Shown here piece after piece: positions 7,678-8,711 of a DNA stretch of 41,458 nt (position 1 is its first letter; each line of letters opens with the position of its first letter). Location of the stretch: UHGV virus genome UHGV-0205600; one strand, written 5' to 3'. The DNA comes from a virus. The notes beneath the pieces were generated by a model. It was not told the origin of the DNA, made no database searches, and saw nothing but the letters and a program-made list of their open reading frames with translations. A program made the translations under genes and the position numbers.

Positions 7678-8418
7678 TCAATGTTGAGGAAGTGAATTAA
7701 CTGCATTTACGATTGGTTCTAACGAGAAACCAGTCCCAATGCCAGGATTGGCATTAAGATTCAACATTTCATTAACCATTTGCAGTGAGCGACTGAACAT
7801 ATCTGCCATTCGTCCAAAGTTAACCCCCATGACTTCCACTGACATTTGCTGTGCTGCCTGCGCCAAATAGCCGCGAAGCTGAGCAACTTCATTAGAGAGC
7901 TGCTGCGCATCAGGCGGCAGAATGTATCGACGTTGAGTAACAATGCCTACAGCTTCTCCCGTTTCCCGGTCAATAATTGGACCGCCTGAATTTCCACCAT
8001 TAACCATTCCATCAAGAGCAAAACGCCCACTTTCCAGAGGGGCGGAAATAATCCCTTCATTCGTAAGCAATTGAGGCAGCCCATGCGGATACCCGGCAAA
8101 GATTAACTTTTTGCCTCGAGTTGGAGTAAATCCTACGGATGGTTGAAGTACTGTTCTCCCGGCAGGAAGCGGTGATTGCAACCGCATAATCGCAAAGTCG
8201 TTGTCACCATCAATGTACAATATTTGAGCTTCTATATGCTCATTAGATTCAGTCTGAAGGTTAACATGATTAATTTGACGCAGATTCTGCAAGTTACAGC
8301 AGGCGGCGACAACATGAAAATTGGTTACGACCAGATCTTCTCGCATAAAGCTGAACCCACTACCACGAGAATCCCCTGCAATGACCTGAAAAGTTGCGTT
8401 GGCTAGAGTTTGATGCAT
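7678..8418 (-). CDS. trypsin-like serine protease (S1 family), cytoplasmic
   Basis: 246-aa ORF with catalytic-triad motifs in order: TNFHVV (His), DNDFAIMRL (Asp), GGNSGGPI (Ser); no N-terminal signal peptide. Confidence 0.75.
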   Translation of the reverse strand: MHQTLANATFQVIAGDSRGSGFSFMREDLVVTNFHVVAACCNLQNLRQINHVNLQTESNEHIEAQILYIDGDNDFAIMRLQSPLPAGRTVLQPSVGFTPTRGKKLIFAGYPHGLPQLLTNEGIISAPLESGRFALDGMVNGGNSGGPIIDRETGEAVGIVTQRRYILPPDAQQLSNEVAQLRGYLAQAAQQMSVEVMGVNFGRMADMFSRSLQMVNEMLNLNANPGIGTGFSLEPIVNAVNSLPQH

Positions 8419-8531
8419 CGATTTGCTCCGATACCGGTGTGTGAAAAAATCATAATGAATTCATCCACCAGAATAATTGATGTGTCACATCAATTTACGC
8501 TCGAAATATTCAATACATCAATTAGCCCGTA

Positions 8532-8711
8532 TCATTTTTGAGCTGTCTGTAACTTGAGATCAAGCGTGCATGATTCACCTTCAGTGCTGCTTTTAACAAC
8601 TACCAGCTCTAGCACATCGCCTTCCTTATGTATTTCATTTTCCACAAACCAGTTCTTAGCTTCTGAGATGGAGTTAACAACCGAGATAAACCCATGGCCT
8701 TCTTTTTTCAT
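8532..8711 (-). CDS. small hypothetical protein (59 aa)
   Basis: Hand-translated ORF not in the supplied track (below its size cut-off): [59 protein letters not shown]; same strand as and 113 bp upstream of the protease. Confidence 0.3.

Follow-up and report, generated by a model that had tools for sequence, protein, structure and literature searches.

The window considered here is the whole 41,458-nucleotide stretch of virus genome UHGV-0205600, the genome of a P22/Sf6-like temperate phage, and the subject of this report is a pair of minus-strand genes between its lysis and packaging genes: a gene for a trypsin-like serine protease of 246 amino acids (7678-8418) and, separated from it by a 113-nt spacer (8419-8531), a small upstream open reading frame (ORF) of 59 amino acids (8532-8711). 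The first-pass annotation, made from the letters alone, had placed both genes at these positions, in the slot between Rz (9270-9719, upstream) and terS (6424-6975, downstream), and that placement stands. E. coli SCU-171 carries a near-identical region, in which PGAP labels the two genes of the pair (below, the module) 'hypothetical protein' and 'S1 family peptidase'.

The serine protease

The Pfam profile Trypsin_2 (PF13365) matches residues 19-159 of the protease over the full length of the profile (E 1.4e-20, 74.9 bits vs. a gathering score of 27.6), and PF00089 (Trypsin) scores 31.6 bits vs. 20.6. The motifs TNFHVV, DNDFAIM and GGNSGGPI begin at residues 32, 72 and 141, and the catalytic codons, checked in the minus-strand sequence, are those of H35 (8314-8316), D74 (8197-8199) and S144 (7987-7989). 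The order His-Asp-Ser and the GxSGG serine motif (GGNSGGP) are those of S1 peptidases, and the triad, which the first reading had described as intact, is invariant in an alignment of 33 family sequences down to 34% identity. In the AlphaFold2 (AF2) model, with a mean predicted local distance difference test score (pLDDT) of 85.8 and barrels mostly above 90, the protein forms a double beta-barrel. A sequence-profile search of the PDB gave HtrA1 (1.3e-15), while Foldseek against the same database gave HTRA1, MucD and DegS-deltaPDZ (E 2e-12 to 1e-11, probability 1.0, target TM 0.63-0.71). By triad, Pfam match and fold, the protein belongs to peptidase family S1 and is S1C-like.

The likeness to HtrA, DegP, DegS and DegQ (MEROPS S1C), whose protease domains are the best matches in both sequence and structure, includes the double beta-barrel chymotrypsin fold, the order of the triad, the GNSGGP motif, a G.P.G motif before the L3-equivalent strand and GIG.(F) in the last strand. 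The protein nevertheless lies outside the HtrA family proper, judged by PDZ domain, export signal and family score alike. No PDZ domain appears in the Pfam scan or the AF2 model, in which the chain ends at residue 246 after the C-terminal helix of the protease, and the NCBIfam scores are 47.6 bits vs. a cut-off of 416 for degP_htrA_DO, 52.7 vs. 250 for MarP and 28.1 vs. 423 for DegS. It differs from the HtrA proteases as well in being cytoplasmic, in having a helical hairpin of about 58 residues in loop L2, and in being carried on mobile elements rather than encoded by a housekeeping quality-control gene.

A signal peptide was not found: there is no lysine or arginine among the first 10 residues, the maximum Kyte-Doolittle hydropathy over 19 residues is 0.96, and the sequence has neither a twin-arginine (Tat) motif nor a transmembrane segment. 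Residues 2-14 sit within the folded barrel of the AF2 model (pLDDT 93-96). An in-frame stop 14 codons 5' of the ATG, with no other start codon between the two, rules out a longer reading frame. With an uncharged n-region, no hydrophobic core and no Tat motif, the protease is therefore cytoplasmic, as had been proposed, and intact; neither a signal peptide nor an autotransporter context, such as would have made it a secreted virulence protease, was found.

A hypervariable hairpin at the substrate pocket

One point of the first-pass annotation does not stand: the segment that it took for a C-terminal extension of about 80 amino acids. According to the AF2 secondary structure it is instead a helical hairpin inserted at residues 165-222 (7753-7926, minus strand), in the L2 or '220' loop of the second beta-barrel. 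Its helices (residues 169-191 and 201-222, pLDDT 59-73) are placed between the barrel strand at residues 156-161 (GIVTQ) and the last barrel strand at residues 227-232, which bears an invariant NAN.GIG motif, the counterpart of the 'GIGFAIP' of HtrA, and which is followed by the canonical C-terminal helix (residues 234-242). Since this strand and this helix both come after the hairpin, the model makes it an internal insertion rather than an extension, with some 58 residues replacing loop L2 of the HtrA proteases, that is, the '220 loop' of chymotrypsin. In chymotrypsin-fold proteases this loop builds the S1 pocket, and it is part of the activation switch of HtrA.

The insert is the most variable segment of the protease, being 21-60% identical between homologues whose residues 1-165 are 55-92% identical, and nucleotide homology with the other E. 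coli protease variants stops where the insert starts, at position ~7925. The core of the protein is under purifying selection, with a ratio of nonsynonymous to synonymous divergence (dN/dS) of 0.12. For the insert the median dN/dS is 0.16 where measurable, dS being saturated in most of the informative pairs, and with that same limit the dN/dS test gave no evidence of positive selection. With dN/dS low and dS mostly saturated, the pattern resembles the exchange of old alleles or segments.

The small upstream gene

The small ORF, whose stop codon is at 8532-8534, encodes an acidic protein (7 K/R, 10 D/E) and is preceded by a Shine-Dalgarno sequence, GAGG, 10 nt 5' of its ATG. It belongs to a family of 74 clusters, all from Enterobacterales and all unannotated, which is under purifying selection (dN/dS 0.18); it is a true gene of an orphan family. 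No match to it was found in PADLOC-DB 2.0.0. By profile search, it lies directly upstream of the protease gene on the same strand in 33 of the 40 assessable phage-context loci, at a spacing of 112-113 nt in 30 of those and of 80-92 nt in Klebsiella variants. In the commonest variant (P0137), the protease follows 112 nt after it in all ten distinct genomic contexts.

The suggestion that the small protein is a partner of the protease is thus supported by synteny and by selective constraint, but only within one lineage. The small ORF is absent beside the more distant prophage homologues of the protease (L010, L027, L032, L040-L046) and beside all of the non-enterobacterial ones, where a search for an alternative conserved small partner found neighbours similar neither to each other nor to the small ORF. 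Mean identity is higher for the small protein (77%) than for the protease core (69%) or the C-terminal part of the protease (52%), and the two proteins do not co-diversify. Because their divergence is uncorrelated and the small protein is the more conserved, it is better seen as an accessory that recombines independently than as a tightly co-evolving cognate: an enterobacterial add-on, and a partner by synteny in that lineage only.

In one Citrobacter portucalensis locus (L019 ~3679-3885, variant P0179) the small ORF stops prematurely after its third codon (ATG AAA AAA TAA). It has been re-annotated there from an upstream start in another frame, with about 40 C-terminal amino acids kept, and the adjacent protease gene is intact.

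A small acidic gene before a larger enzyme gene, at fixed spacing and inherited together with it, is the layout of a type II toxin-antitoxin (TA) pair, and the module could on that ground be an addiction module, in which a protease toxin and a 59-aa antitoxin stabilise the prophage with no dedicated anti-phage role. The predicted translational arrangement described below, by which the small protein would be made first and in excess, would suit such a pair, and the one natural protease copy broken by an IS3 element (also below) hints at a cost. A structured spacer of 113 nt is, however, atypical of type II pairs; the small protein showed neither a DNA-binding or known antitoxin fold nor the co-evolution expected of cognates; many members of the protease family, prophage ones included, have no such partner; and in the Citrobacter locus a rearranged small-ORF N-terminus stands alongside an intact protease. 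We consider an addiction module distinctly improbable.

The leader of the protease gene

The spacer, which forms the leader of the protease gene, is better conserved than its surroundings would predict. Its mean column identity is 88%, and its pairwise identity of 83% is above the values of 70% and 58% seen at third codon positions in the two coding sequences beside it. The predicted RNA fold beats all of 200 shuffles (z = -3.77); a search of positions 7400-9400 against Rfam gave no match at E <= 1. Given its fixed length, a constraint above that of synonymous sites and its structured fold, the spacer appears from its sequence to be functional.

The predicted fold contains two elements. The first is a long-range helix of 12 bp (minus strand), whose 5' arm, UUGAUGUAUUGA (8510-8521), begins 11 nt after the stop codon of the small ORF, and whose 3' arm, UCGAUGCAUCAA (8410-8421), holds the protease start codon (8416-8418) together with codons 2-3. 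It is present in both the minimum-free-energy and the centroid structures and is retained by RNAalifold, with 95% of cells paired and changes mostly to G-U wobble. The second, found both in the fold and by RNAalifold, is a conserved hairpin, AATTGATGT-GAC-ACATCAATT (8475-8495, minus strand), with 98% of cells paired and nine one-sided changes that preserve pairing via G-U wobble. Over the leader as a whole, 96% of pair cells are standard pairs vs. 15-47% in slid controls. The hairpin is also a palindrome, and might have been taken for a DNA operator; this is disfavoured, because the natural variants pair via G-U wobble, which breaks the symmetry of the DNA.

The Shine-Dalgarno sequence of the protease gene (GGAG, 8426-8429) is partly paired in the predicted fold, and both it and the AUG are predicted to be paired in all eight variants folded, including the divergent 92-nt Klebsiella spacer of locus L004; the pairing probability of the AUG ranges from 0.61 to 1.0 across the eight. 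In our reading the leader would occlude the protease start to translation, a block that ribosomes finishing the small ORF may lift. With the Shine-Dalgarno sequence and AUG buried, as predicted, in a helix whose 5' arm begins just after the small ORF, little protease would be made, and that after the small gene had been translated.

At the other end of the module, 27 nt after the protease stop, is a terminator-like hairpin, GGGCCACUGGCAAGUGCGAGUGGC followed by UUUUCUAUU (7618-7651, minus strand; fold -21 kcal/mol), lying between the protease gene and the convergent gene for a DUF6953 protein. In locus L083 an intrinsic terminator was scored at the corresponding place, 33 nt beyond the stop codon of the protease. 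Sigma-70-like sites are depleted both in 6900-9400 of the window and at L083, about 2.3 standard deviations below shuffles at these two independent loci. Inspection by eye for promoters turned up only 8-of-12 matches, and none is claimed.

Genome setting

The late region of the phage lies on the minus strand, in the order Q (10782-11327), tRNA-Asn and tRNA-Thr (10535-10690), holin (10201-10416), lysozyme (9704-10201), Rz with Rz1 (9323-9514), a 50-aa ORF, the small ORF, the protease, terS and terL (4799-6421). The module thus has the same orientation as the holin-lysozyme-Rz-terS transcript, and in every lambdoid or P22-like locus it comes directly after the lysis genes. This is the basis of the main rival to the interpretation that we favour, namely that the protease is a late protein of benefit to the phage itself, made from the Q-dependent late transcript and acting in the cytoplasm while the carrier phage grows lytically. 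It might, for instance, break down a defence or stress protein of the host (counter-defence), or else the repressor or other proteins of a competitor prophage. Such a role would agree with the failure to find a consensus promoter belonging to the module, and the same slot often holds regulators of the Rha, KilA-N or ANT type, which act in trans on other phages. Against it, close homologues stand by themselves where there is no late operon, whether on a plasmid, in non-phage islands or next to genes of PifA-like or TIR type; two prophage remnants incapable of lytic growth (L085, L090) have kept the gene; it is absent from GenBank phage records that include many P22-like and lambdoid isolates; and the terminator-like hairpin downstream, together with the leader that hides the start, suggests an autonomous and tightly limited unit. 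On balance a late phage-benefit function seems unlikely to us.

Just upstream of the small ORF, at 8746-8859 on the minus strand, the 3' end of an o-spanin gene of foreign origin survives as a relic (phrog_1275; PHROG 8.4e-5); it is 45% identical to the C-terminus of the spanin of locus L043. Intact phrog_1275 spanins lie directly 5' of the module in L008, L010 and L043. As this phage has a lambda-type Rz/Rz1 pair of its own and the foreign spanin is intact elsewhere, the module was imported with a piece of the donor's lysis cassette; the relic marks the upstream edge of the imported segment and is a recombination scar from a phage with a different lysis cassette.

The 50-aa ORF (9130-9282, minus strand), which overlaps the end of Rz and has a hydrophobic N-terminus, matches phrog_11822 over its full length (8.6e-38); PGAP calls it hypothetical, and it is kept in many P22-like prophages. 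The tRNA-Thr(TGT) and tRNA-Asn(GTT) genes between Q and holin are found as a pair in the related prophages L001 and L002 also. Between the protease and terS, on the plus strand and thus convergent with the protease, is a second cargo pair, encoding DUF2158/YodC (phrog_3261; 7003-7212) and DUF6953 (phrog_10782; 7257-7496) proteins. No prophage but the SCU-171-type one showed that pair; at this place other loci have DUF2560, or DUF1398 plus DUF3950.

Distribution among enterobacterial phages

Phages that bear the module between their lysis cassette and packaging genes have terminases of four sorts (P22-type, lambda Nu1/A, Terminase_2 and DUF1441/GpA-type) and differ in their sets of holin, endolysin and spanin. 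A distant protease homologue without the small ORF (L010) also follows a lysis cassette, in a phage with a Terminase_4-type terminase. In Sf6, HK620 and SEN22 the region is otherwise near-identical and the module is absent, while the degraded prophage remnants L085 and L090 still hold it. Such a protease had been called unusual phage cargo, and it is: the module is present in 29 of 5,426 complete E. coli genomes, and a tblastn search with the protease found no homologue in 50,697 GenBank phage records. The 196 sequenced phage records that match the neighbourhood do so only on the Rz side (8910-9300), none with the module.

In one E. coli genome, PSS-11, the protease copy is split by an IS3-family insertion sequence. 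It is the same allele (NZ_AP027694.1 ~1399288-1404218; hits H22, H68; 99.8% identity), with the element after about nucleotide 554 of the query, and provides a natural knock-out comparable with SCU-171. The lambda-like prophages that have the commonest variant of the module also encode an 'SDH family Clp-fold serine proteinase' (PF01972; L003 8579-9574, and at the beginning of each of the loci L083-L091), on the opposite strand between Q and holin, which makes a second protease cargo in the same phages.

The location between lysis and packaging genes, and the interruption by IS3, might be taken to mean either that the protease has a core phage function, in head maturation or as a lysis accessory, or that it is functionless, decaying cargo. 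The wider picture speaks against both. At least four unrelated packaging/head modules and several types of lysis cassette accompany the gene, and it is missing from near-identical relatives such as Sf6 and HK620; decay, for its part, does not agree with dN/dS values of 0.12-0.18 and a triad that holds down to 34% identity. We give these explanations hardly any credence, the least of all those considered.

The protease family beyond Enterobacterales

The family is very small: a search of 1.84 billion 50%-identity clusters gave about 60 representatives at E <= 1e-30. Full-length matches in 100,044 species genomes number only eight and are scattered over Proteobacteria, Planctomycetota, Bacillota, Chloroflexota and Deferribacterota, and there are further members in Bacteroidales and on a haloarchaeal plasmid. 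Several large high scorers of the 1.84-billion search (P0238, P0298, P0274 and others) were not taken for informative fusions, for they are multi-trypsin-domain or PDZ proteins whose scores sum over repeats.

The non-enterobacterial homologues stand alone, without the small ORF, in cargo-type positions: in integrase/AlpA islands at smpB, as the terminal gene of a P2-like prophage, and next to IS6 on the haloarchaeal plasmid. Some have defence genes for neighbours. In Bacteroidales (Limibacterium; L012 7021-9153, also L013 and L014) the homologue is directly followed, after 270 nt and in the same orientation, by the gene for a KAP NTPase of 710 amino acids, to which the PADLOC model PifA fits at 7e-69; the locus is within a polysaccharide-synthesis region. 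TIR_2/ThsB-like genes are found beside homologues in two unrelated genomes (L095 4959-5942; L078 3970-4896): the TIR_2 gene (ThsB-like or PDC-S66-like) is 59 nt upstream of the homologue in a Pirellulales metagenome-assembled genome and two genes upstream in the other, and the two TIR proteins are only distantly related (22% identity).

Some members of the family (P0084, P0087; L082 6001-6816) add a C-terminal SEC-C zinc-binding motif (PF02810) after the protease, and one of these is the last gene of a P2-like prophage.

The range of hosts bears on another possibility, that the protease is an extracellular factor released by lysis, freed like Stx without an export signal and acting on host mucosa or on neighbouring bacteria. 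The late-operon position adjoining the lysis genes would allow this, and the carriers of the module are gut, clinical and animal Enterobacterales. Yet homologues occur in Planctomycetota, Chloroflexota, Acidithiobacillus, a haloarchaeon and others, with no animal host or lysis cassette; the protease has unpaired cysteines and no disulfide-stabilised architecture, as well as no secretion signal; and the tight translational occlusion predicted for it is unsuited to a bulk secreted protein. A role of this kind is very improbable.

Comparison with defence proteases and other phage cargo

Trypsin-like effector domains are known from bacterial immune systems, among them Avs1 (AVAST type 1), the RT-protease of retron type XI, and a trypsin-MBL module associated with Hachiman and AVAST (PMC12799240, bioRxiv 10.1101/2025.09.03.673762). 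The present protease resembles them as a cytoplasmic enzyme of the Trypsin_2 type, and it has weak PADLOC matches, restricted to the protease domain, to RT-Protease_XI (2e-13), Avs1b (7e-6) and PDC-M35A (8e-5). It differs in being a stand-alone protein of 246 amino acids with an insertion of its own and in having as partner a 59-aa orphan rather than a pro-enzyme nuclease. Avs1 is a protease fused to a STAND NTPase and sensor repeats, some 1,900 amino acids in all, and the Avs1b model scores only 20.7-21.6 bits on the protease vs. a cut-off of 1,500, covering just residues 3-112. Retron type XI joins its protease to a reverse transcriptase and has an ncRNA; the match to it spans only profile positions 339-486, the protease part, with no reverse transcriptase in the protein or its neighbours. 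Unlike the trypsin-MBL module, whose protease activates the product of an adjacent MBL-fold or pro-nuclease gene, the protease here has the 59-aa orphan, DUF6953, DUF2158 and terS for neighbours, and no nuclease domain. No gene for a STAND NTPase, reverse transcriptase, MBL nuclease or Hachiman protein is fused or adjacent to the protease in the window.

The Lit protease of the e14 prophage, a zinc metalloprotease, causes abortive infection by cleaving EF-Tu. Lit too is a single prophage-encoded cytoplasmic protease, possibly sensor and effector in one; the analogy is functional only, the fold of Lit being unrelated to that of the S1 protease.

In its position the module resembles the morons of the lysis-packaging junction (lambda bor, and Rha, KilA-N and DUF1398 genes), which occupy the same variable slot and vary in presence between near-identical phages, as the module does; the terminator-like hairpin downstream is a further likeness. 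Lambda bor, with which the locus had been compared at first, encodes a lipoprotein, points the other way and has a promoter of its own, whereas the module runs with late transcription and the scans gave no consensus promoter for it. Though it may work as Lit or the trypsin-like immune effectors do, the protein belongs to none of their families; it is a protease cargo that stands alone, marked by a distinctive insertion and accompanied by an orphan partner and a putative regulatory leader.

Possible function

The reading that we favour, tentatively, is that the module is a two-gene moron, cargo that moves horizontally among temperate phages, in which the protease is an effector of defence or of conflicts between mobile elements and cells, most likely an anti-phage or inter-phage sensor-effector, and the hairpin gates or targets the active site. 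A role in conflict would accord with the mobility of the module, with the patchy spread of the protease across phyla (in Bacteria and one archaeon) and with the defence genes near some homologues. In such a mechanism the leader would bury the Shine-Dalgarno sequence and AUG of the protease gene and so hold synthesis low, behind that of the small protein; the hairpin would gate the active site and/or recognise a trigger or substrate; and upon recognition the protease would cleave one or more cytoplasmic targets, aborting the infection of a competitor; in function it would be a counterpart of Lit, or of Avs1 and retron type XI with their trypsin-like effector domains. The small protein may limit the dose or may be an inhibitor or antidote, which would fit the occluded start; together with the leader, the enterobacterial small protein would keep the level of protease low and possibly inhibit the enzyme.

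A number of observations weigh against this interpretation. The module points the same way as the late operon, and scans for a sigma-70 consensus promoter gave none in 6900-9400 of the window (0 sites vs. 4.7 +/- 2.1 expected) or in L083 1900-4500 (0 vs. 5.0 +/- 2.1), so that expression may perhaps come only late in the lytic cycle, a poor fit to defence of a lysogen. The small ORF is dispensable in other lineages, and in a mirror-tree comparison (Mantel r 0.14-0.18, not significant) small protein and protease did not co-diversify. Segment exchange, with dS saturated, describes the divergence of the insert better than demonstrable positive selection does. Covariation in the leader helix is weak, with 2 compensatory pairs and a score reached by 35 of 500 shuffles. 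The association with defence neighbours is anecdotal, involving three or four of about ten non-enteric contexts. The PADLOC check that had been proposed for a known defence system did not identify one: PADLOC 2023 (PADLOC-DB 2.0.0) and NCBIfam returned only partial, generic trypsin-domain matches, far below the family cut-offs. Finally, a literature search that included protein accession numbers found no paper on the protease family.

A bolder version of the proposal, which we regard as doubtful, is that the pair is an undescribed minimal system of anti-phage or inter-phage exclusion, with the hypervariable hairpin as both sensor and lid and, in Enterobacterales, with an added orphan partner and a leader coupling translation of the protease to that of the partner, and that the family is a single-gene immune effector spanning two domains of life, Bacteria and Archaea.

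Were the protease a defence or exclusion effector, the module would be among the smallest protease-based immune modules known, with sensing, gating and catalysis in one chain of 246 amino acids, and its specificity element, a swappable hairpin at the S1 loop, would be open to mapping and perhaps to re-engineering. Should the protease instead help its phage to grow lytically, it would be a rare example of a phage-encoded cytoplasmic protease turned on the host. The leader that hides the protease start would in itself be a tractable case of long-range translational coupling controlling a potentially toxic enzyme. The favoured interpretation, if true, would give a function to the unexplained pairs of 'S1 family peptidase' and 'hypothetical protein' in the prophages of Enterobacterales.

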